Virus record (IMG/VR): IMGVR_UViG_2778261349_000009
Span: 1-14,711 of that record
Reading direction: 5' to 3' (one strand)
Length of the DNA stretch: 14,711 bases
DNA from: a virus
Lineage: Duplodnaviria; Heunggongvirae; Uroviricota; Caudoviricetes
Shown here in pieces: positions 6,166 through 14,711 of this stretch. The notes beneath the pieces are model-generated. The model was not told the DNA's origin. It saw only the letters and a list, made by a program, of their open reading frames with translations, and ran no database searches. Numbering within the stretch: the stretch's first letter is position 1; each line of letters starts with the position of its first letter. The translations under genes were made by a program, and so were the position numbers.

Positions 6166-6266
6166 ATACACATAAATATTAACTTGATTTTAGTGTATTC
6201 GATCCTTTTGAAACTTGCATGTTAATTTATTCTTGATGTATTCTTGATTTGTAAAGTTAATATTGG
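6166..6266. promoter_or_regulatory. Immunity-region operator/promoter cluster (OR/PR/PRM-like)
   Basis: Roughly 130-bp A/T-rich divergent intergenic region containing AACTTGATTTT (6181..6191), the direct repeat TATTCTTGAT twice (6228..6237 and 6239..6248, 11-bp period), inverted repeat TACAC…GTGTA (6166..6197) and several -10-like hexamers (TAATAT at 6258..6263). Exact PR and PRM hexamers could not be assigned unambiguously. Confidence 0.5.
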
Positions 6267-6275
6267 AGCTGTGCT

Positions 6276-6533
6276 GTGATAAAACTGAATGATTACGACA
6301 TGTTGCGTAAATTGATTCCTCAAAACGCCATAGCAAGATACATCGGTGTTACGCCACAAGCGGTGAACCTGTGGTTTTCTAAAAACTCCGTTCCTTCTCG
6401 TTTTGTTTTACGGGTGTGTGAATTAGTTGAATGGAAGGTTACTCCGCATGGGTTAAGACCTGATCTATACCCTTATCCCGAAGATGGAATTCCTGATTCG
6501 TTACGAAAATCAAACGGTATTACCAGAGATTAA
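6276..6533 (+). CDS. cro: Cro-like regulator (YdaS/Cro-type HTH)
   Basis: 85-aa ORF divergent from cI, GTG start with SD GGAG 7 nt upstream. Motif …AIARYIGVTPQAVNLWFSKNSVP…LRPDLYPYP is characteristic of the YdaS/Cro-type small HTH proteins of enterobacterial prophages. Confidence 0.7.
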   Translation: MIKLNDYDMLRKLIPQNAIARYIGVTPQAVNLWFSKNSVPSRFVLRVCELVEWKVTPHGLRPDLYPYPEDGIPDSLRKSNGITRD

Positions 6534-6555
6534 AGACTGACTGTCACGAGCAGTA

Positions 6556-6588
6556 ACTCACGATGCATACGTTTTGGCGTGAGTTTTG
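6556..6588 (+). terminator. Terminator/attenuator-like hairpin downstream of cro (tR1-like position)
   Basis: Inverted repeat ACTCACG…CGTGAGT followed by TTTT. The loop is long (15 nt), so strength is uncertain. Confidence 0.3.
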
Positions 6589-6614
6589 AAATGTCATCCT
6601 CAAGGAGCAATCAG

Positions 6615-7322
6615 ATGAATACCGCAATTTTTACCGATAAAGCATCCATGACCAGTATTGAGATAGCTGAGCTGGTGGGAAGCAGACCAGATAGTGTTAA
6701 GAGAACTATTGAAACACTGGCTAAAAAGGGAATCATCCAATTTCCACAGTCTGTGGAAATTGAGAATAAACAATCACTTGGCCCTCGCCGATTTTCTAGC
6801 GCGTATGTATTCGAAGGTGAACGAGGCAAACGCGACAGCATTATTGTTGTCGCACAGCTTTGCCCTGAATTCACTGCCCGCTTGGTAGATCGCTGGCGTG
6901 AACTGGAAGAACAAATCCGTAAACCGATGAGCCAGATCGAAATGGTTGCTGCAATGGCACTTGAAGCCGTTCGTCAACAAAGACGTCTTGAGCAGGTGGA
7001 AGAGAAAGTCACCCACGTTACTGAAACCGTCGAGAAAATCAAAAGAGGCACCATACGCGATGGTTATGCAGGCTACCGTCAGCTGGTGGCGAAAACGGGT
7101 ATGTCAGATGCGAAATGCCGCAATCTGGTGAACGCATATCAGATCCCTACCGATACCCATGAATTTATGACGCCGGATGGATTGTTGTCTCGTCGAGCGA
7201 TTGTTGCAGTAGAACCTTTCATGGCTGCTTTTCATCGCATGATGAGTGAAGCAGAGCCACGAGGTGCACGCTGGTATCACCCGAAAATGGGGTTGTTCCA
7301 GGCGCTGGGCTGGCAGGGGTAA
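6615..7322 (+). CDS. Putative phage regulatory protein with Rha/antirepressor-like N-terminal DNA-binding domain and coiled-coil middle
   Basis: Track ORF 6579..7322 trimmed to the ATG at 6615 (SD AAGGAG 7 nt upstream). N-terminus …ASMTSIEIAELVGSRPDSVKRTIETLAKKGIIQ… resembles the DNA-binding part of Rha/antirepressor-type proteins. Family assignment is tentative. Confidence 0.45.
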   Translation: MNTAIFTDKASMTSIEIAELVGSRPDSVKRTIETLAKKGIIQFPQSVEIENKQSLGPRRFSSAYVFEGERGKRDSIIVVAQLCPEFTARLVDRWRELEEQIRKPMSQIEMVAAMALEAVRQQRRLEQVEEKVTHVTETVEKIKRGTIRDGYAGYRQLVAKTGMSDAKCRNLVNAYQIPTDTHEFMTPDGLLSRRAIVAVEPFMAAFHRMMSEAEPRGARWYHPKMGLFQALGWQG

Positions 7323-7341
7323 TTATGCTCACAGGTAACAC

Positions 7342-7518
7342 ATGCAAGTACTCAATCGCTGGTTCCGTGATGGAAGGGGGCGTCGCGTCCACATTATACG
7401 CTGGGAGCCTGAAACACAGCGGGTTATTTACCTGCGTGATGGTTATCCGCATGAATGCTTCAGCCCGCTGTGGTTGTTTCGTCGTGATTTTGTTGAGTGC
7501 GAAGCGCCACCAACATAG
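7342..7518 (+). CDS. Small Trp/Arg-rich hypothetical protein (58 aa)
   Basis: Below the ORF-track cutoff; hand-translated: MQVLNRWFRDGRGRRVHIIRWEPETQRVIYLRDGYPHECFSPLWLFRRDFVECEAPPT. Composition is protein-like. SD weak (AGGT). Lies in a different frame from the overlapping 285-aa track ORF. Confidence 0.35.
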   Translation: MQVLNRWFRDGRGRRVHIIRWEPETQRVIYLRDGYPHECFSPLWLFRRDFVECEAPPT

Positions 7519-7630
7519 CGACTCTATATTTAACCTCGTTGACAACATTCAATTCTGGCGGCACACTTTACATATAGTGGCAAAATCCACTATCGGGAGT
7601 GAGACCCCGGAATTGATCGAGGCGACAAAC

Positions 7631-7650
7631 GACGCGCCAGCGTCTTTTTT
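7631..7650 (+). terminator. Candidate intrinsic terminator
   Basis: Stem gacgc / gcgtc with loop gcca, followed by TTTTTT. Confidence 0.35.
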
Positions 7651-7819
7651 GTTGTCAGTGCCTGCGCACGCCAAAATTATGGTGGGCTGGGCAGGGGAAC
7701 CGAAAGGTTCGCCGGTTTCCTTGATCGCCGGTAGTCTCAACCCTGTCCAGTCCGCCACCAGCGAGATTGAGACCTCCTGTGGTGGATATTGTCATTCACC
7801 GATCAAGGAGGCTGTCTTA

Positions 7820-8182
7820 ATGGCTACGATCCCCGCACATCCATATCTCAAAATCGAGGTCGTCAACGGCAGAGCCGTTATATTCTCCCTGTATGTCGCC
7901 TGTCACTTTAAGCGCATGCATAAGAATATCATCGATCGAATCGAATATCTCAACTGCTCACGCGAATTTCTCACCCGCAACTTTATTCCCGGCACTTATC
8001 GCGCCTATGGCGATTCAGTGCGTGGTTATTACATCACCCGTGATGGTCTGATGATGCTACAGCTTGGGTTAAGTCTGCGCACCATGCGGTACTACGAGAG
8101 CTGTATTGACGCACTCCATGAGGTTGAAACCGTCCAGGGTCACTCCGTGTCCCGTCGTAATCAACGGGAGGTACGCCCATGA
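7820..8182 (+). CDS. Rha family phage regulatory protein (120 aa)
   Basis: Internal ATG at 7820 of the 285-aa track ORF, with excellent SD AAGGAGG 8 nt upstream. Sequence …HFKRMHKNIIDRIEYLNCSREFLTRNFIPGTYRAYGDSVRGYYITRDGLMMLQLGLS… matches the conserved Rha-domain pattern (K.H.NVL.DI..L.CS.EF...NF....Y.D..G...Y.ITRDGF..L). Confidence 0.7.
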   Translation: MATIPAHPYLKIEVVNGRAVIFSLYVACHFKRMHKNIIDRIEYLNCSREFLTRNFIPGTYRAYGDSVRGYYITRDGLMMLQLGLSLRTMRYYESCIDALHEVETVQGHSVSRRNQREVRP

Positions 8183-8373
8183 TTAGTTACGAAATCATCA
8201 TCTCCACTGCGGAATACAGAAACGATGTATCAGTTCGCACGGATGTATCTGTCTGGCACCGTCGCTATAAATCCAGAAAAACGGCAGAACTGAAAGCGGC
8301 AGAGATGTGTGAAACCATCTCAATGAAAGGTAGCCCGGTTAAATACGTAACTACGGCGGAGGTGCGTCCATGA
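8179..8373 (+). CDS. Hypothetical small protein (64 aa)
   Basis: Start overlaps the stop of the Rha gene (ATGA), implying translational coupling. No recognisable motif. Confidence 0.45.
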   Translation: MISYEIIISTAEYRNDVSVRTDVSVWHRRYKSRKTAELKAAEMCETISMKGSPVKYVTTAEVRP

Positions 8374-8594
8374 TCCGCCACATCGTTAATTTCCTGTATC
8401 ACCGATACAACCATTGCCCCCGTGTGGGGCAGTGGTTCACCACCAGCAATGGACACGTTCTGCGGGTTTGCCTGGTCAATACAGAAAGCCAGAAGGTTGT
8501 CTGCCAGGTTCAGGGACGTACTCATACCCTGAGTTATCCGCTGGTGGCGTTTCAGTCCGGAAAAATGTTTAAGCGTCTGGGAGGTGCCGTGTGA
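8370..8594 (+). CDS. Hypothetical small protein (74 aa), Cys/His-containing
   Basis: ATGA overlap with the upstream ORF. Contains H..H.C…C…C spacing that could bind zinc. No family recognised. Confidence 0.45.
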   Translation: MIRHIVNFLYHRYNHCPRVGQWFTTSNGHVLRVCLVNTESQKVVCQVQGRTHTLSYPLVAFQSGKMFKRLGGAV

Positions 8595-8917
8595 TTTGTA
8601 AATTAACGCCTGAAAAAAAAGCGCTCAATAAGAGTTCAAGGCTGCTTTTATCTTATTTGCAAAATGCTTCAGGTGAGCAGGGTTTTGTGGAAATTTCTCT
8701 TCTGGAATTGTCCGCAGCTCTTGGCTTATGCCGTAACACAATCACAAACGCTACGGCATTACTCGAAGATCTTGGCGTTGTCACTGTTTCCAGGGGGAGA
8801 AGGAATAAAACGAAAAGTGGAAAGGAAAGTGCAGGGAAAAATATTTACAGGTTGATCCAGTCAGCGACCAATAATAAGGACTACGCCATAGTCATGCCGC
8901 GTAAGGAGGTCGTATGA
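8591..8917 (+). CDS. Putative HTH/winged-helix DNA-binding protein (108 aa)
   Basis: GTG start overlapping the upstream stop (GTGA). HTH-like segment …FVEISLLELSAALGLCRNTITNATALLEDLGVVTV… Contains an A8 homopolymer at 8616..8623 within codons 8-10. Confidence 0.5.
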   Translation: MICKLTPEKKALNKSSRLLLSYLQNASGEQGFVEISLLELSAALGLCRNTITNATALLEDLGVVTVSRGRRNKTKSGKESAGKNIYRLIQSATNNKDYAIVMPRKEVV

Positions 8918-9906
8918 GTCGTTACGCTCCTACACCGGAGGTTATGGCTATTGGTCAAATTAATATTTCCGGCAATGTCACACCGCCATCCTGGTGGAAA
9001 CATATCCAGCTACCCAGTGGGCGTCCAGATGCGACTGCCATTGCGCTGCTTTCAGAGATTGTTTACTGGTATCGCCCGACAGAAGTCAGGGATGAGCATA
9101 CAGGGGCTTTACTGGGATATCGCAAGCGTTTTCAGAGTGACAAGCTGCAAAGAAGCTATCAGGCGTTTGCTGAGCAGTTTGGCTTTGGGAAAAGGGAAAC
9201 CGCAGATGCGCTGAAGCGTCTTCGTGATGCCGGGTTTATTACTCTGGATTTACGCACGGTGGAAATGCTCGATGGGGTGAAATGCAGCAATATTTTGTTT
9301 GTCGGGATCAACCCACAGGCAATTGCTGCCATCACCACACCTTCTTCTGTTTCGCCAGAAAGTAACAGCAATAATGCAATCAGCGATACAGCTATTACGT
9401 TAAAACGGAACACCCCCCAACGTCATAACGGAACAGGGGATACGCCGAATGTTGATACAAATACAGAGATTACTACAGAGATTACAACGGAGACTAAAAA
9501 CACTATTGGCGCATCCGCTGACGCGTCTGCACCAGCGCGTTCTGCCAGACAGGAATATTCACCGGAATTTGAGCAGGCCTGGCAGGAATACCCCAAACGT
9601 GCTGGTGGTAATTCCAAGTCAGCAGCTTTCAAAGCCTGGAAAGCCCGAATCAGGGAAGGTGTGACACCAGAAACCATGCTCAACGGTGTGAAACGCTATG
9701 CCGCCTGGGTGCGTGTCTCAGGAAATATCGGCACCCAGTTTGTGAAGCAGGCGTCGACGTTCTTTGGCCCCGATCGACACTTTGACGAATCCTGGCAACA
9801 GCCTGCCGTTCCCGGAGGTGGGCGGCAAAGACAGGTCGATGTTCTGTCTGGCCTTGGTGCCATGTCTGACAAATTCGGTAAATCCAGCGACAAACTGACA
9901 TTCTGA
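8914..9906 (+). CDS. Replication initiation protein (lambda O-like role; N-terminal winged-helix, C-terminal domain, linker with tandem repeats)
   Basis: 330-aa ORF immediately upstream of and coupled to the DnaC-like gene. N-terminal DNA-binding-like domain, low-complexity linker (…DTNTEITTEITTETKNT…), conserved-looking C-terminal domain (…EYSPEFEQAWQEYPKRAGGNSKSAAFKAWKARI…FDESWQ). Function inferred from position and architecture. Confidence 0.6.
   Translation: MSRYAPTPEVMAIGQINISGNVTPPSWWKHIQLPSGRPDATAIALLSEIVYWYRPTEVRDEHTGALLGYRKRFQSDKLQRSYQAFAEQFGFGKRETADALKRLRDAGFITLDLRTVEMLDGVKCSNILFVGINPQAIAAITTPSSVSPESNSNNAISDTAITLKRNTPQRHNGTGDTPNVDTNTEITTEITTETKNTIGASADASAPARSARQEYSPEFEQAWQEYPKRAGGNSKSAAFKAWKARIREGVTPETMLNGVKRYAAWVRVSGNIGTQFVKQASTFFGPDRHFDESWQQPAVPGGGRQRQVDVLSGLGAMSDKFGKSSDKLTF
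9461..9496. repeat. Iteron-like tandem repeats inside the initiator gene (candidate ori)
   Basis: Imperfect 12-bp tandem repeats starting at 9462 (acagagattact, acagagattaca, acggagact), in the interdomain linker of the initiator gene, the same location as ori-lambda iterons within gene O. Confidence 0.4.
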
Positions 9907-9916
9907 GGTGACAGCG

Positions 9917-10795
9917 ATGATGACGTTTAACCTGCGTGAACAACAAACAAGACTACAGGCGCGGATGGATGAGTTACGGGCAGAGATTGCATTTGCTCAG
10001 AAGGGCGAAAAACCATGGCCTTATCGTTCCTGCTGGATGCGTGAAGGGCGCGGGTGTTGCGAAAAACATGGCGAATACCACACACATATTCTGGTGTGGA
10101 GCGATCGTAATGGCGAGGACAGAGAAAAAATTTCATGCTGCCCTGACTGCTTGATAGCTGAGGCCAACGATTTGACCATGGAGCTGTCGTCCCTCAAGGC
10201 GGAAGAACTGACTGATAACGCCGGAATTGCTCTGCGTTTTCGGGACTGCGAGTTTGATAATTATCTGGAGGTTAATCCTGACGCAGCCAGAAATCTTGCG
10301 GCCTGTCGCCGCTATGCGGAGAACTGGCCAGATATGCTGGAGAACGGTACCAGTCTTGTTATGACCGGCAGTTGCGGTACCGGGAAAAATCATCTGGCGG
10401 TATCAATGGCAAAACACATCATCCGTAACTATCTGGCCAGTGTGGAGATCACCGACGTGATGCGCCTTACCCGTGCTGTGAAAAACTGCTGGCGGAATGA
10501 CAGTGAAAAAACAGCGGATGACGTCATTGAGCATTATGCGTCACTGGATTTGCTGATCATCGACGAAGTCGGCGTTCAGTTTGGCAGTGCGGCTGAAATG
10601 GCCATTTTGCAGGAAATTATCAATGCCCGGTATGAGGGTATTTTGCCAACTATCTTGATCAGCAACCTTTCACCGGAAGAATTGTGGGCGTTCATCAGTC
10701 CCCGGATTGCCGACAGGATCACCAATGGCGGGCGCAACTGGTTGTCGTTTAACTGGCCCAGCTACCGTTCTCGTATCGGAGGTGTTGCCGCATGA
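9917..10795 (+). CDS. DnaC/IstB-like AAA+ helicase loader with N-terminal Cys/His cluster
   Basis: Walker A (GSCGTGKNHLAVSMAKH) and Walker B (LLIIDEVG). N-terminal CWMREGRGCCEKHGEYHTHILVW…CCPDC is zinc-ribbon-like. Start set to the ATG at 9917 (SD GAGGTG 7 nt upstream) rather than the GTG at 9908. Confidence 0.85.
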   Translation: MMTFNLREQQTRLQARMDELRAEIAFAQKGEKPWPYRSCWMREGRGCCEKHGEYHTHILVWSDRNGEDREKISCCPDCLIAEANDLTMELSSLKAEELTDNAGIALRFRDCEFDNYLEVNPDAARNLAACRRYAENWPDMLENGTSLVMTGSCGTGKNHLAVSMAKHIIRNYLASVEITDVMRLTRAVKNCWRNDSEKTADDVIEHYASLDLLIIDEVGVQFGSAAEMAILQEIINARYEGILPTILISNLSPEELWAFISPRIADRITNGGRNWLSFNWPSYRSRIGGVAA

Positions 10796-12192
10796 CCAGC
10801 CAGAACACCCCGGCATGGCGTAACGATGACCTGGAAGGCGCTGTCATTGGCGCGTTTTTTCTGCGTGGGGCTGATCCGGAAGTGATGGATATTCTGGCCA
10901 CATTGTCGGCGGACGTTTTTTCTGCACGACAGTACCGGGATATTTACGCGGGAATTTGCAGACAGGCCCGTGTATCCGGCGTCATTGACCCCGTACTGCT
11001 GTGCAATGAGATGCCGGAACTTGCCCCGGTGATTACCGACACCGGACGCAAAACCTGGGTGAAGTCTTCACTGGAGCACTATGTCGCAGCGTTGCGGCGT
11101 AATGCCGCACTGCGCGATGCAGAAAAAACACTGACTGAAGCATTACAGAATTTACGTGATGCGTATACCTGTGAAGCAGCCGAGGATGCCCTGAAGGATG
11201 CGCAGAACATGATGGCCTCACTGTCGACCGGAAAGGGCGTCATTCAGCCGGTTCACATTGATGATGTCCTTCCGGAAGTGGTCGACCGTGTTGAATGCCG
11301 CAATCAGGGACTGGAGAAATCCAGGGCGCTGATGACCGGTATTGATGAACTGGACGCAAAAACGGGCGGTATGGAGCCAGGCGACCTGGTATTCATTGCG
11401 GCTCGTCCTTCGATGGGGAAAACCGAACTTGCGCTGGATATCATCGACAAGGTGACTGAGCAGGGGCATGGCGTGCTTCTGTTCACCATGGAGATGGCGA
11501 ACATCCAGATTGGTGAACGTATGGTGTCTGCAGCAGGGGGAATGCCGGTATCCCGTCTTAAGTCTGTTGCCCGTTTTGAAGACGAAGACTGGGCACGTTT
11601 CTCACAGGGCGTGGGACGAATGACGGGGCGTAATATCTGGATGGTGGACCAGGCAAACCTGACCATTGATGAGATATGTGCAACCACGAGGCACCACCGG
11701 ATGAAACACCCGGAAACGGCGCTGGTGGTGGTCGATTACCTCGGCCTGATTAAAACCCGCAGCACGGGGCGTCACGACCTTGCTGTGGGGGAAATCTCAA
11801 AGGGACTAAAAAGCCTGGCAAAATCCGGCGGTTTTCCGCTGATTGCTCTGAGCCAGCTCTCCCGCGGTGTGGAATCCAGACCCAATAAACGCCCCATGAA
11901 CTCGGACCTGAAAAACTCAGGGGAAATAGAGGCGGATGCAGACATCATTCTGATGCTTTACAGGGATGAGGTGTACAACCCGGAGACACAGGCGAGAGGC
12001 ATAGCAGAAATCAACATCACGAAACAGCGTAATGGCACGCTGGGTACCATTTACCGGCGTTTTCATAACGGGCATTTTCTGCCTGTGGACCAGGAGAGTG
12101 CCCGGATTCTTTCCACTCCCATGACGCCGGGCAATCCGCGCAGATACAGCAATAACCGCATGTCGGGTAGTAAAACGGAGCGTTTATTTTGA
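10792..12192 (+). CDS. DnaB-type replicative DNA helicase (phage-encoded)
   Basis: 466-aa ORF. Walker A (IAARPSMGKTELALDI), Walker B (VVVDYLGLI), RecA-like C-terminal motifs (SQLSRGVESRPNKRPMNSDLKNSGEIEADADIILMLYRDEVY; ITKQRNGTLG). ATGA overlap with the loader gene. Confidence 0.9.
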   Translation: MTSQNTPAWRNDDLEGAVIGAFFLRGADPEVMDILATLSADVFSARQYRDIYAGICRQARVSGVIDPVLLCNEMPELAPVITDTGRKTWVKSSLEHYVAALRRNAALRDAEKTLTEALQNLRDAYTCEAAEDALKDAQNMMASLSTGKGVIQPVHIDDVLPEVVDRVECRNQGLEKSRALMTGIDELDAKTGGMEPGDLVFIAARPSMGKTELALDIIDKVTEQGHGVLLFTMEMANIQIGERMVSAAGGMPVSRLKSVARFEDEDWARFSQGVGRMTGRNIWMVDQANLTIDEICATTRHHRMKHPETALVVVDYLGLIKTRSTGRHDLAVGEISKGLKSLAKSGGFPLIALSQLSRGVESRPNKRPMNSDLKNSGEIEADADIILMLYRDEVYNPETQARGIAEINITKQRNGTLGTIYRRFHNGHFLPVDQESARILSTPMTPGNPRRYSNNRMSGSKTERLF

Positions 12193-12446
12193 ACAACAGA
12201 ACAACCACTGTTTCACCGGAACAACTTCGTCGGCAGGCGCAGGAGATGCTTCGTTGTGCTGAACAGATGGAAAAAACGAGCGTGGCAAAAGATACGCTCC
12301 GCAAGCAGCTTACTCCGGCGCTTCGTGATCTGCTGCAGGCAAAACACCGCACACAAAAGGCGGTGGATGAGCTGGTGGATTGCGTGGCGGAACTGGAAGG
12401 CCAGGTAAGCCAGTTTGAAACGCTGGTGAAGGAGTTTACTGCGTGA
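12189..12446 (+). CDS. Hypothetical coiled-coil protein (85 aa)
   Basis: ORF beginning with TTG overlapping the helicase stop (TTGA). Predicted helical/coiled-coil composition. Start codon uncertain. Confidence 0.4.
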   Translation: MNNRTTTVSPEQLRRQAQEMLRCAEQMEKTSVAKDTLRKQLTPALRDLLQAKHRTQKAVDELVDCVAELEGQVSQFETLVKEFTA

Positions 12447-12492
12447 TGGCTGAATTTTTTTCTCCTGCGTTCATGCAATACCGTTCGCTGAG

Positions 12493-13488
12493 GTGACCGT
12501 GAGAGCACTGCTGACCCCTGAAATTGCCCCGCGTATGGGGATCGTCTTGTTCAGACCAGGTTCAGAGCTGATGCCCCTGTTTATGCAGGGACGTGTCCTG
12601 CTGGAGCCTGAGCCGGAACGCTATTCATCTTTTGCCAGTGGTGCCGTTCCGGCGGCATCACAACCGTTAGCGGATGATCCTGCCGTTCGGGCCGTGTTCC
12701 GCAATGAGGCAGTTATTCGTCGTGCTGGTGGCGTGGAATGTCTTGAAAGCTGGTTACTTCGTGAAAAGGGCTGTCAGTGGCCTCATTCCGGATGGCACAG
12801 CGAGAACATGACCACAATGCGGCACGCGCCGGGCGCAATCCGTCTGTGCTGGCACTGCGATAACCAGCTGCGCGATCAGTTCACGGAACGGCTGGAATCA
12901 ATGGCAACGGATAACTGTGCCCGCTGGGTGTTGTCTGTTGTGCGCCGTGATCTTGGTTTTGATGACAGTCACGTTGTGACAATGCCAGAACTGTGCTGGT
13001 GGCTGGTTCGTAATGACCTGGCGGATGCCTTACCGGAAAGTGCAGCCCGTAAGGCCCTGAGATTACCGAAGCCTGTTTTGCCGTCTGTCACCCGGGAGAG
13101 TGACCTTGTGCCTTCGGTTCCTGCCACCAGCATTATCCAGGATAAAGCGAAAAAGGTGCTGGCGCTGAAAGTGGATCCGGAGTCGCCGGAGTCTTTTATG
13201 TTACGCCCCAAACGTCGTCGCTGGGTTAATGAAAAGTACACGCGCTGGGTTAAGACGCAGCCGTGTGCATGTTGTGGTAAGCCAGCCGACGATCCGCATC
13301 ACCTGATTGGTCATGGTCAGGGTGGAATGGGTACAAAAGCGCATGACCTTTTTGTGTTGCCTTTGTGCAGAAAACACCATGACGAACTGCATGCGGATAC
13401 CGTGGCATTTGAAGAGAAGTATGGTTCCCAACTGGAGCTGATATTTCGTTTTATCGATCGCGCACTGGCGATTGGTGTGCTGTCCTGA
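12493..13488 (+). CDS. DUF968-like protein with C-terminal HNH-like zinc-binding motif (nin-region protein)
   Basis: C-terminal …WVKTQPCACCGKPADDPHHLIGHGQGGMGTKAHDLFVLPLCRKHHDELH… (CxCC…HH…H…C..HH), as seen in DUF968 proteins encoded just upstream of Q in enterobacterial prophages. GTG start without a clear SD; true start uncertain. Confidence 0.55.
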   Translation: MTVRALLTPEIAPRMGIVLFRPGSELMPLFMQGRVLLEPEPERYSSFASGAVPAASQPLADDPAVRAVFRNEAVIRRAGGVECLESWLLREKGCQWPHSGWHSENMTTMRHAPGAIRLCWHCDNQLRDQFTERLESMATDNCARWVLSVVRRDLGFDDSHVVTMPELCWWLVRNDLADALPESAARKALRLPKPVLPSVTRESDLVPSVPATSIIQDKAKKVLALKVDPESPESFMLRPKRRRWVNEKYTRWVKTQPCACCGKPADDPHHLIGHGQGGMGTKAHDLFVLPLCRKHHDELHADTVAFEEKYGSQLELIFRFIDRALAIGVLS

Positions 13489-13506
13489 TTTTTGTGGAGA
13501 AAGTTG

Positions 13507-13887
13507 ATGCGTGATATTCAGATGGTTCTTGAACGCTGGGGGGCATGGGCGGCAAGTGGTAACACCGGGGTGGACTATTCTCCGATCGCTGCCGGATTCA
13601 AAGGCCTTTTACCATCTACCACTAAACCACGTCCAGCCTGCTGCGATGATGACGGACTTATCATTGAAAACTGTCTTGCACGTCTGAAGCAGAAAAAACC
13701 TGAGGAGTATTCGCTTCTCATTGCTCATTATTTGTTGCGAATATCAAAAAGACAGATAGCCAGGACGAGAAAGAAAAGCGAAAAAGCAATACGAATTGAG
13801 ATGCAGATAGCCGAAGGGTTTATTGACGGATGTTTGTCTGTGCTGGGGGTAAGACTGGAGATGGACGACTGGCTGCTAAAAAAGTAA
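13507..13887 (+). CDS. Late-gene antitermination protein Q (phage 82/QuuD-like type)
   Basis: Track ORF 13492..13887 trimmed to the ATG at 13507 (SD GGAGA upstream). N-terminus MRDIQMVLERWGAWAA…AGFKGL…CCDDD resembles Q antiterminators of the phage 82/DLP12 type, recalled from memory rather than searched. Followed by an intrinsic terminator at the expected tR' position. Confidence 0.7.
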   Translation: MRDIQMVLERWGAWAASGNTGVDYSPIAAGFKGLLPSTTKPRPACCDDDGLIIENCLARLKQKKPEEYSLLIAHYLLRISKRQIARTRKKSEKAIRIEMQIAEGFIDGCLSVLGVRLEMDDWLLKK

Positions 13888-13955
13888 AAAATGATTAGTG
13901 CGGTCCGCAAAAAGTATGTCAGTATGTTAAGAGTGGTTACTTTGCCACACAGCTT

Positions 13956-13982
13956 AAACCCGCCGCGAGCGGGTTTTTTTAT
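13956..13982 (+). terminator. Rho-independent terminator (candidate tR' downstream of the late promoter)
   Basis: aaacccgc-cgcga-gcgggttt stem-loop followed by a long T-run (…gcgggttttttt at 13969..13980), about 70 nt downstream of the Q stop. Confidence 0.65.
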
Positions 13983-14102
13983 GGCTGAAATCGGTCCTGT
14001 ACAGTAAACGCGCTGGTGGCGGTGAATACCGGTCTTTCAGCTTGCTGGCTTTTTTGACAAGAGTTATTGGTGTGTCACGTTAACCGGAAAAGGGAAAAAG
14101 AC

Positions 14103-14300
14103 ATGCTGAAACAGCAGGATATGACCGAAACCGCCAGAGTGGTGTTTAATGAATTAAGTGCCACCGCACCGGCGACAGTCGGGGAGATTGCACAGAATAC
14201 TTACCTTTCACGCGAACGCTGTCAGTTAATACTGACCCAGCTTGTTATGGCGGGTCTGGCAGACTATCAGTTCGGTTGTTACAGACGCCTTCAGTCCTGA
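14103..14300 (+). CDS. Small winged-helix protein, possibly FaeA/PapI-like regulator (65 aa)
   Basis: Track ORF 14067..14300 trimmed to the ATG at 14103 (purine-rich AAGGGAAAAAG upstream). Segment …TVGEIAQNTYLSRERCQLILTQLVMAGL… has a winged-helix character similar to PapI/FaeA-type small regulators. Assignment is tentative. Confidence 0.4.
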   Translation: MLKQQDMTETARVVFNELSATAPATVGEIAQNTYLSRERCQLILTQLVMAGLADYQFGCYRRLQS

Positions 14301-14313
14301 AGGCTTTTTTATT
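14287..14313 (+). terminator. Rho-independent terminator overlapping the stop of the small winged-helix gene
   Basis: Stem gccttca / tgaaggc with loop gtcc, followed by TTTTTT (14305..14310). Confidence 0.6.
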
Positions 14314-14399
14314 TGTGGTAAATGGGCGGCTGGTGGGTGTTAGGGGCACTCACCAGCCATCTGCTCATGCGTTGGGGTCACAAGCAAACCTCAGGCCCA

Positions 14400-14418
14400 C
14401 TGCTTTGCGCAAAAGCAG
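14400..14418. promoter_or_regulatory. Palindrome upstream of the methyltransferase start (candidate operator)
   Basis: ctgcttt-gcgca-aaagcag: 7-bp arms with a 5-nt centre, ending 32 nt upstream of the ATG at 14451. No T-run, so not a terminator. Confidence 0.3.
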
Positions 14419-14450
14419 AATGAGCCTATCAGAGACAGGCTTAATGATCC

Positions 14451-14711
14451 ATGCTTAATACTGTAAAAATATCCAGTTGTGAGTTAATCAACGCTGATTG
14501 CCTGGAATTTATCCAGACCTTACCGGAAAACTCTGTCGATCTGATAGTCACAGACCCGCCATACTTTAAAGTGAAGCCCGAGGGCTGGGATAACCAGTGG
14601 AAGGGCGACGATGATTACCTGAAGTGGCTGGACCAGTGTCTGGCGCAGTTCTGGCGGGTGCTGAAACCTGCCGGAAGTCTTTACCTGTTCTGTGGCCATC
14701 GCCTGGCATCT
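14451..14711 (+). CDS. DNA methyltransferase, beta-class N6-adenine/N4-cytosine type (5' partial, continues beyond window)
   Basis: Hand-translated open frame to the window end: MLNTVKISSCELINADCLEFIQTLPENSVDLIVTDPPYFKVKPEGWDNQW…LKPAGSLYLFCGHRLAS. Motif IV (TDPPY) near the N-terminus is typical of beta-class amino-methyltransferases. Absent from the ORF track because there is no stop in the window. Confidence 0.8.
   Translation, partial: MLNTVKISSCELINADCLEFIQTLPENSVDLIVTDPPYFKVKPEGWDNQWKGDDDYLKWLDQCLAQFWRVLKPAGSLYLFCGHRLAS

Follow-up and report, generated by a model that had tools for sequence, protein, structure and literature searches.

An orphan M.EcoGII-type methyltransferase, a conserved structured leader and a winged-helix gene as probable parts of one cassette in the late operon of a Shiga toxin phage-like prophage

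In this analysis I examined the 3′ end of a 14,711-nucleotide (nt) stretch of Caudoviricetes DNA (IMG/VR record IMGVR_UViG_2778261349_000009, positions 1–14,711; hereafter the window), on which all features described below lie on the + strand. Positions 13888–14711 cover the beginning of the late operon in a lambdoid prophage resembling the Shiga toxin 2 (Stx2) phages. Downstream of the antiterminator gene Q, they carry what are probably three conserved parts of a single cassette: a gene for a small protein with a predicted winged-helix fold (14103–14300), a structured leader of ∼130 nt (14320–14450), and the 5′ part of an orphan methyltransferase gene of the M.EcoGII type (from 14451). Established here are which genes are present and in what order, where the terminators lie, that the leader is conserved and covaries, and that the parts are strictly syntenic. 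The enzyme and its late-operon position were already known, and the gene arrangement is ordinary for Stx-type prophages. The candidates for new regulatory parts of this known system are the conserved leader and the obligatory pairing of the winged-helix protein with the methylase; no description of either was found in the literature searched, including the work on M.EcoGII and on the N15 late promoter. A preprint on the Pas small RNA concerns other loci. I think it most plausible that synthesis of a toxic enzyme is gated by the leader together with the winged-helix protein.

Results

A conserved structured leader upstream of the methyltransferase

The 150-nt spacer between the small gene and the methylase has a column identity of 0.81–1.0 across genera, equal to or higher than that of the flanking coding DNA, at a divergence where the synonymous sites of the adjacent small gene are saturated. 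This region had been taken for a promoter (14314–14450) in the original prediction; no promoter was found in it, and it is better read as a conserved structured leader with five helices. Helix P1 (14323–14327/14395–14399, TGGGC/GCCCA) encloses the hairpins A (14328–14339/14347–14358) and B (14360–14369/14379–14388). It is followed by helix C (14400–14406/14412–14418), a palindrome with arms of 7 base pairs (bp) that are 100% complementary, and by helix D (14421–14426/14438–14443), which contains the only Shine-Dalgarno-like sequence, AGG, 12–14 nt before the ATG of the methylase. Single-sequence folds of divergent versions of the leader converge on this one architecture, and the fold z-score of the window leader is −4.4.

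I built a covariance model from 21 sequences with the hand-derived structure. With it, the leader was found in sense orientation, ending at the start codon, before every methylase of the family examined except that of the P2-like Aeromonas phage phiO18P, for which the covariance-model search returned no leader. The matches (E-values of 1e-8 to 1e-42) include N15, phiKO2, Yersinia, Hafnia and Providencia phages and two Vibrio phages, with E-values of 7e-16 for Yersinia, 2e-11 for phiKO2, 5e-10 for ST2-1pr, 3e-9 for N15 and 2e-8 for VHML. In the alignment fitted to the model, 85.4% of the cells are paired, against 31–42% in slid controls, and 29 of the 41 pairs show compensatory change; none of 500 shuffles reached these values. 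Helices A–D (four of the five) covary, and P1 provides no covariation evidence because it never varies. Hairpin A has an unrelated sequence in the lambdoid, N15-like and Vibrio versions, yet always forms a hairpin of ∼10–12 bp. The unpaired and junction nucleotides AAATGGGCG, CCAT, AAGGCCCA and GAGC are invariant even in the Vibrio phages.

Several caveats apply to reading the leader as an RNA element acting in the sense orientation. The covariation counts above were obtained from an alignment fitted to the model; in an unfitted MAFFT alignment of closer sequences the signal is weaker (10 compensatory pairs, score of 0.113 vs 0.02–0.08 in controls), although still above all controls. The antisense strand also folds well (z-score of −3.45). 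Helices A and D contain G·U pairs, which point to the sense strand (54 G·U vs 17 A·C), but in the lambdoid subgroup helix B possesses tandem C·A/A·C mismatches, which are G·U pairs on the antisense strand; the evidence on the acting strand is therefore mixed, and does not fully settle it. Finally, the palindrome of helix C is nearly perfect as DNA and extends through its centre, which would suit a dimeric DNA-binding protein as well as an RNA hairpin.

Other assignments for this region were considered and set aside. A search of the window against Rfam 15 gave only sub-threshold noise at E ≤ 1 (Trp_leader, isrK, P26), and the leader from six divergent phages gave no Rfam 15 match at E ≤ 0.1. 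ARAGORN found no tRNA-like element. The default RNAalifold procedure on the MAFFT alignment produced a different, poorly covarying fold, and the hand-derived structure was used instead. An open reading frame (ORF) at 14276–14458 (+, 60 amino acids) has no Pfam match, and its frame is broken by 1-nt indels in close relatives. A leader peptide starting from the ATG at 14322 (MGGWWVL...) is unlikely: it ends at codon 8 in most genera, is variable in length elsewhere, and has no Shine-Dalgarno sequence.

Synteny and distribution of the cassette

In 17 of 17 species-level genome loci, the methylase starts 147–153 nt past the stop codon of the small gene. Salmonella, Kluyvera, Citrobacter, Klebsiella, Buttiauxella, Enterobacter, Phytobacter and Scandinavium are among the genera represented, and the identity of the small protein across the loci is 69–95%. 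The same layout was found with homologues of the small protein at 62% and 52% identity, and in Hafnia and Providencia phages, while a homologue at 54% identity is accompanied by the leader and a truncated or decayed methylase. In the N15-like phages and in Vibrio phage ST2-1pr, the upstream gene encodes a protein of 75–82 amino acids, with the MTE.A N-terminal motif and the ..F/L-I-x-x-Q-M/L.. helix of the small protein. A profile-profile comparison (hhalign) between the small protein and gp51 of N15/phiKO2 gave a probability of 89% (E 2e-6). Wherever a lineage was checked (lambdoid, N15-like, and one Vibrio phage), the small gene precedes the methylase, and the methylase family reaches the phages N15 and phiKO2 as well as Yersinia, Vibrio and Aeromonas phages. 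Within E. coli, the 423 bp spanning 14038–14460 are present in 2378 of 5426 complete genomes (∼44%), with up to seven copies per genome.

One observation counts against a strict pairing: the small gene persists in a minority of E. coli prophages, and in the viable phage PhiR5_1, from which the methylase and most of the leader are gone; the break in the methylase-less prophages falls just past 14339. Viable phages thus retain the small protein without the methylase, and its link to the enzyme is not obligatory.

Contigs labelled as a Bacillus metagenome-assembled genome and a Chryseobacterium isolate also carry the cassette, with 77–95% protein identity. These copies likely correspond to misbinning or contamination.

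The methyltransferase

The methyltransferase gene is represented by its 5′ part (14451–14711, 87 codons), and runs off the window. The 87 encoded residues match the Pfam family PF01555 (N6_N4_Mtase) with 42 bits (cut-off of 26.7, E 1.4e-10), with motif IV, VTDPPY, at residues 33–38, in agreement with the beta-class methyltransferase bearing a TDPPY motif that had been predicted. The corresponding protein of full-length relatives is 352 amino acids long. In the relative from Stx2_14040 (99% nucleotide identity), the sequence FFMGSGST is found near the C-terminus, in the part that for the window gene lies beyond the window; the motif order in the relatives, with DPPY first and FxGxG last, is that of the beta class.

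Comparison with M.EcoGII, whose sequence was taken from the machine-read text of the PMC11551740 supplement, revealed that 85 of the 87 N-terminal residues (98%) are identical, as are 326 of 349 (93%) in the full-length methylase of a 99%-identical relative. Judged by its sequence, the window gene is an M.EcoGII orthologue, and its product a beta-class N6-adenine enzyme of the M.EcoGI/GII type. Like these two enzymes it is prophage-borne, an orphan, and shows the beta-class motif order, with no substantive enzyme difference over the 87 codons compared. No mention of the upstream winged-helix gene or of the conserved leader was found in the M.EcoGII literature searched.

M.EcoGI and M.EcoGII are prophage methyltransferases of E. 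coli O104:H4 C227-11 (PMC5778455). It has been shown that M.EcoGII methylates adenine in any context, in both DNA and RNA (Murray et al. 2018, PMC5778455), and its properties are further described in PMC7544214. The enzyme is harmful when expressed constitutively and is unexpressed in the lysogen; the authors proposed that it is turned on as the prophage excises, and named phage 1720a-02 as the bearer of a very similar enzyme (PMC5778455). By analogy with M.EcoGII, the methylation of adenine in any context, the toxicity and the silence in lysogens would also be expected of the window allele. As for a target motif, the sequence assignment predicts none, as for the M.EcoGII family.

The original prediction also suggested that the methyltransferase could be an orphan protecting phage DNA, with no restriction enzyme as a partner upstream, and both proposals are upheld. 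A Pfam scan of the window identified no restriction enzyme upstream, where the genes are DUF968 and Q. Downstream of the methylase, no nuclease was found in the close or distant relatives examined, and the possibility of a complete restriction-modification system just beyond the window is not borne out by the sequence of these relatives. Relatives with 99% identity possess the gene order DUF968 (ydfU), Q, small hypothetical gene, 352-amino-acid DNA methylase, three tRNAs, stx2AB and lysis genes; in non-Stx phages, holin and lysin are found directly 3′ of the methylase. Because the gene is an orthologue of M.EcoGII and has no restriction enzyme beside it in the relatives, an orphan, anti-restriction reading fits, in line with the published picture of this 98%-identical enzyme (PMC5778455), and the methylase most likely shields phage DNA from restriction.

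The small winged-helix protein

The small gene (14103–14300, with the ATG at 14103 and the stop codon ending at 14300) encodes 65 amino acids, and is preceded by a conserved Shine-Dalgarno sequence, AAGGGA. Between genera, dN (the nonsynonymous divergence) is 0.09–0.18, while synonymous sites are saturated (pS, the proportion of synonymous differences, of 0.8–0.9); this low dN despite saturation argues that the ORF is a real gene. The AlphaFold2 model (mean predicted local distance difference test, pLDDT, of 86.8) shows an H-H-H-E-E topology, with helices at residues 4–18, 26–33 and 37–49 and a beta hairpin at 53–62. On the basis of this model, the protein is predicted to have a winged-helix fold, as initially proposed.

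Its membership beyond the fold is less specific. The protein belongs to PHROG 331 (phrog_331, function unknown), and the NCBI label for it is "TrmB family transcriptional regulator". However, with 17.8 bits against a cut-off of 25.6 it falls short of TrmB (PF01978), and the scores for HTH_24, DprA_WH and MarR_2 are likewise below their cut-offs; NCBIfam gave only a 12-bit match to Lrs14. The resemblance to FaeA/PapI suggested in the original prediction did not survive a profile check: the protein has no match to Pfam FaeA (PF04703) at E ≤ 1, PapI is absent from a sequence search of the PDB at E ≤ 10, and PefI, a member of the PapI family, scores only E 0.82 in a profile search. It is therefore best named as an uncharacterised winged-helix family, which at the phmmer level is narrow and enterobacterial. 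Direct sequence links to solved structures consisted only of spurious leucine-rich repeat (LRR) matches, with LRR-type noise also present among the 50% representatives, and a PDB match to 'Ap3' (9sgv), apparently a generic or designed winged helix, is uninformative.

In 24 aligned homologues of the small protein, C40 and C59 are invariant; they are located in the recognition helix and in the wing strand, respectively. In the GenBank record of Stx2_14040, the small gene (9671–9901) was started at an upstream GTG and flagged as 'possible pseudo, internal stop codon'. Read from the ATG, the conserved frame of 65 codons is uninterrupted. The ∼65 nt located 5′ of the gene (14038–14102, including the Shine-Dalgarno sequence) are conserved across genera as well (CTTGCTGG...ACCAGAGTTATCTGTATGTCAC), without a recognisable promoter; cross-genus conservation climbs from ∼0.45 to 0.75–0.8 at position 14038. 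A GTCAC motif recurs in 14038–14102 and in hairpin B of the leader.

Promoter and terminators

The 126-amino-acid antiterminator Q is encoded at 13507–13887 (Pfam PF06530, Phage_antitermQ, E 6.4e-53; phrog_79), and the gene is annotated as Q in the 99%-identical relatives. The region between Q and the first terminator (13888–13955) is, on account of this position, presumed to contain the late promoter (pR′) and the Q-utilisation sequences. The tR′-like intrinsic terminator (13956–13985) consists of a stem AAACCCGC/GCGGGTTT (13956–13976, 8 bp including 5 G-C) followed by a T run. A second intrinsic terminator hairpin (14287–14310), with the stem GCCTTCA/TGAAGGC (14287–14304) and six T, overlaps the stop codon of the small gene. 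Across 13400–14711, five terminator-like sites were found, against 1.2 expected. An equivalent of the first terminator is present at the same place in other genera; the second hairpin is kept there, with a degraded T run. In phiKO2 and N15, the annotation places a late promoter and a terminator immediately before the leader and methylase. All the features listed in the original prediction (Q, the tR′-like terminator, the 65-amino-acid gene, the second terminator, the methyltransferase and the palindrome) were recovered, with small corrections to their coordinates.

The promoter itself is a weaker point for a late-operon mechanism, as a late promoter could not be located by consensus: the scan for sigma-70-like sites across 13400–14711 returned zero sites, and manual placement of pR′ or of a promoter for the small gene gave no convincing −35/−10 pair. 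A weak promoter may lie within 14038–14102. The small gene and the methylase are late genes, because of their position after Q and tR′. The initial description of the cassette as a moron, an autonomous unit expressed from the repressed prophage, is thus not supported: a terminator is present, but the scan gave no promoter, and the orthologous M.EcoGII is unexpressed in lysogens.

The sequence of 13888–13955 varies with the type of Q, and from ∼13903–13925 onward it is shared among phages with different Q proteins. A weak match to the Rfam family isrK, a small RNA of the Gifsy-1 prophage, was observed at 13907–13979, with 18.9 bits, below the cut-off of 50 (E 0.21). By analogy with the lambda 6S RNA or StxS, 13907–13979 could correspond to a short terminated late transcript. 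In Stx phages, late promoters are constitutively active, and terminated at tR′ in lysogens (PMC7547250). The region 13888–13985 shares with the loci of such pR′-tR′ transcripts (lambda 6S RNA, StxS of Sp5 (PMC7547250), Gifsy-1 IsrK) a late promoter region followed at once by a strong terminator, but its isrK match is far below threshold, and a transcript of this kind is a prediction for this type of Q.

Discussion

A model for the control of the methylase

The following model, which I consider probable as a whole, accounts for these observations. In the lysogen, transcripts from the late promoter would halt at the terminator after Q, with a second terminator following the small gene. The weak Shine-Dalgarno-like AGG of the methylase would be buried in helix D, providing a second lock, and terminators and buried AGG together would keep the toxic enzyme off. 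Upon induction, RNA polymerase modified by Q would pass both terminators, and the cassette would be co-expressed with the lysis genes (and stx where present). The enzyme would then hypermethylate the replicating phage DNA before packaging, making the progeny resistant to restriction in the next host. The small protein would most likely be a nucleic-acid-binding regulator, acting on the leader or on its palindrome, and timing or limiting methylase synthesis. I infer three elements of this model: that it depends on Q, that helix D gates translation, and what the winged-helix protein does. Against an essential role for the latter, M.EcoGII is fully active alone (PMC5778455), and the small protein is therefore not needed for catalysis.

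A more far-reaching version is that the 130-nt element constitutes an undescribed class of cis-regulatory RNA with a winged-helix trans partner, gating a promiscuous and toxic DNA/RNA adenine methylase until late lytic growth, and common to lambdoid, N15-like and Vibrio temperate phages. I regard this as tentative, and clearly less probable than the model above. Bolder still would be a winged helix that reads N6-methyladenine, or a leader able to sense its own methylation, providing feedback on the extent of modification.

Comparison with known systems

The com-mom operon of phage Mu encodes a late, toxic DNA-modification function under layered control, in which a structured leader hides the ribosome-binding region. 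The cassette described here resembles it, both in its late-expressed, host-harming DNA-modifying enzyme and in the leader structure over the ribosome-binding region. In contrast, the window enzyme is a methyltransferase and not Mom, Com is absent, the winged helix is encoded upstream of the leader, and promoter control of the Dam/OxyR type is not evident in the window. A Com-type ORF is present only in the Vibrio phage ST2-1pr, where a 36-amino-acid ORF encoding a Mu Com-like zinc ribbon (1358–1468; PF10122, 26.2 bits, cut-off of 22.9) is located between the leader and the methylase, forming a com-mom-like layout with an M.EcoGII-like methylase in the place of Mom. With this Com ORF, a translational activator known from a toxic DNA-modification gene has been recruited at least once in the family, which by analogy may be counted as a parallel for tight post-transcriptional control in the methylase family.

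The linear plasmid prophages N15 and phiKO2 offer a closer comparison. Their gp52 belongs to the same methylase family (57–61% identity) and has the same leader in front of it (E 3e-9 and 2e-11), and gp51 is a 75-amino-acid winged-helix homologue. They differ in that an annotated late promoter and terminator sit between gp51 and the leader, placing the winged-helix gene outside the late transcript, whereas in the window the small gene is downstream of tR′. In phiKO2, a partition-site palindrome is also located between gp51 and the leader and methylase.

M.EcoGII has become the workhorse non-specific N6-methyladenine (m6A) methylase of chromatin-mapping methods, and enzymes of its type are likely a broad anti-restriction device of Stx and other temperate phages. 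Here the enzyme gene lies directly upstream of the site at which Shiga toxin genes are carried. No explanation was found, in the literature searched, for how this toxic gene is kept silent in cells with up to seven copies. A winged-helix protein and a structured leader at every copy would be a concrete candidate answer to this question, and the leader, if confirmed, would be a new and widespread entry among the catalogued phage RNA motifs. Both merit follow-up.

Alternative roles for the small protein and the leader

Within the proposed model, the small protein could act on RNA or on DNA, and I give about equal weight to these two roles. In the first case, it would be a sequence-specific RNA-binding translational regulator of the leader, opening or closing helix D in the manner of Com. 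Every lineage with a homologue of the small gene has the leader between that gene and the methylase, and the invariant unpaired and junction nucleotides of the leader, maintained down to the Vibrio phages, are what is typically seen in a binding platform. Among the best structural matches of the small protein are winged-helix domains of SelB in complex with selenocysteine insertion sequence (SECIS) RNA, and Mu com-mom provides a precedent, with a Com homologue beside a member of the methylase family in ST2-1pr. However, small winged-helix proteins mostly bind DNA, and this one carries no net positive charge, its sequence containing 6 basic and 6 acidic residues. ST2-1pr moreover possesses both a winged-helix homologue and Com, implying that the two are not simple substitutes. 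Taken on its own, I find this specific role possible but doubtful.

Alternatively, the protein could be a dimeric DNA-binding repressor or controller, occupying the palindrome of helix C or other DNA of the leader, and blocking or delaying transcription of the methylase. The analogy is with the C proteins of restriction-modification systems, where a small regulator gene also lies directly upstream of a DNA-modification gene, with a palindrome between these. In most lineages the palindrome of helix C extends through its centre despite its differing sequence (GCTTTAGCGCTAAAGC, GCGATGCGCATCGC, GCTCTGCAGAGC), the N-terminal half of the predicted recognition helix also varies between lineages, and in N15 and phiKO2 the late promoter comes only after the gene, whose product could thus be made before the late genes. 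Yet the sigma-70-like scan detected no promoter in the spacer, helices A, B and D covary as RNA does, with G·U pairs in A and D, and Hafnia and Providencia share the palindrome while differing at recognition-helix residues. The C proteins are helix-turn-helix proteins of the Xre type that control a nuclease, while here the protein is a winged helix, and no nuclease is present in the relatives examined. This role appears to me just as questionable as that on RNA.

It is also conceivable that the small protein acts with the product of the methylase rather than on its synthesis, either as a reader of N6-methyladenine in DNA (6mA) that shields hypermethylated phage DNA from methylation-dependent (type IV) nucleases, or as a partner restraining the enzyme. 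In DpnI and HhiV4I, 6mA is read by winged-helix domains, and nucleases of this kind attack DNA that M.EcoGII has modified (PMC11037411); the strict synteny with the methylase also speaks for such a role. The argument is one of analogy, and the small protein persists in phages lacking the methylase, making this role unlikely.

A different reading concerns the leader itself, whose conservation could reflect a function at the DNA level, as a Chi site and recombination module boundary. The Chi sequence GCTGGTGG occurs 13 times in the window (10 on the + strand, 3 on the − strand, all within 6671–14336; for example at 14012–14019 and 14329–14336), against 0.49 expected from shuffles (shuffle maximum of 4). 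The copy at 14329–14336 is a perfect Chi site and forms the 5′ arm of helix A, which does not vary in 20 of 21 aligned sequences (Hafnia phage yong2 is the one that departs), while the 3′ arm varies. This Chi site probably explains why the arm is invariant in Enterobacteriaceae loci when its partner varies, and may be why recombination junctions of the relatives fall at hairpin A. Nonetheless, Chi covers 8 of the ∼130 conserved nt, the N15-like and Vibrio versions keep helix A with no Chi, and compensatory changes are found in helices A–D. I consider it improbable that the conservation of the spacer as a whole has this origin, and favour the structured leader.

Relatives show several module boundaries inside hairpin A, beside Chi: one prophage type replaces everything past 14339, another diverges a few bases later, and a third has a 29-nt insertion.

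The original prediction proposed a phage-borne epigenetic switch, in which the small protein would act as a PapI/FaeA-type factor together with adenine methylation to set a heritable ON/OFF promoter in the lysogen. This is highly improbable: although the protein is a single-domain winged helix of ∼65 amino acids, in the size class of PapI and PefI, and a GATC just before the ATG of the methylase (14446–14449) is invariant in the lambdoid group, the enzyme family is non-specific, is silent in lysogens (PMC5778455) and cannot set site-specific patterns, the GATC is missing from the Hafnia and N15-like versions, and the context is a late operon past Q and tR′, not a divergent fimbrial regulator. 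A PapI/Dam-style switch loses its basis here, since it needs site-specific competition at defined sites while this family methylates any adenine. Beyond the small single-domain fold shared with PapI, FaeA and PefI (PF04703), the window protein differs from these in having no match to their hidden Markov model, in its genomic context, and in having neither a site-specific methylase nor an Lrp-type control region. The GATC is also present in Providencia.

Genomic setting

From the integrase to the start of the late region, the window is ∼94% identical to Stx2a- and Stx2d-converting phages over 86–90% of its length. The region of interest is 99.0–99.4% identical to Stx2a phages and to prophages of Shiga toxin-producing E. 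coli O145:H28 and O111, and phage 1720a-02, which carries stx2, shows 97% nucleotide identity to the window. The same gene order as in the 99%-identical relatives is found in 1720a-02, with stx2, and in phiP27, with stx2e. In phiP27, a GIY-YIG nuclease gene (4734–5963) is located between Q and the cassette of the small gene and methylase, and homology to the window resumes at ∼13925.

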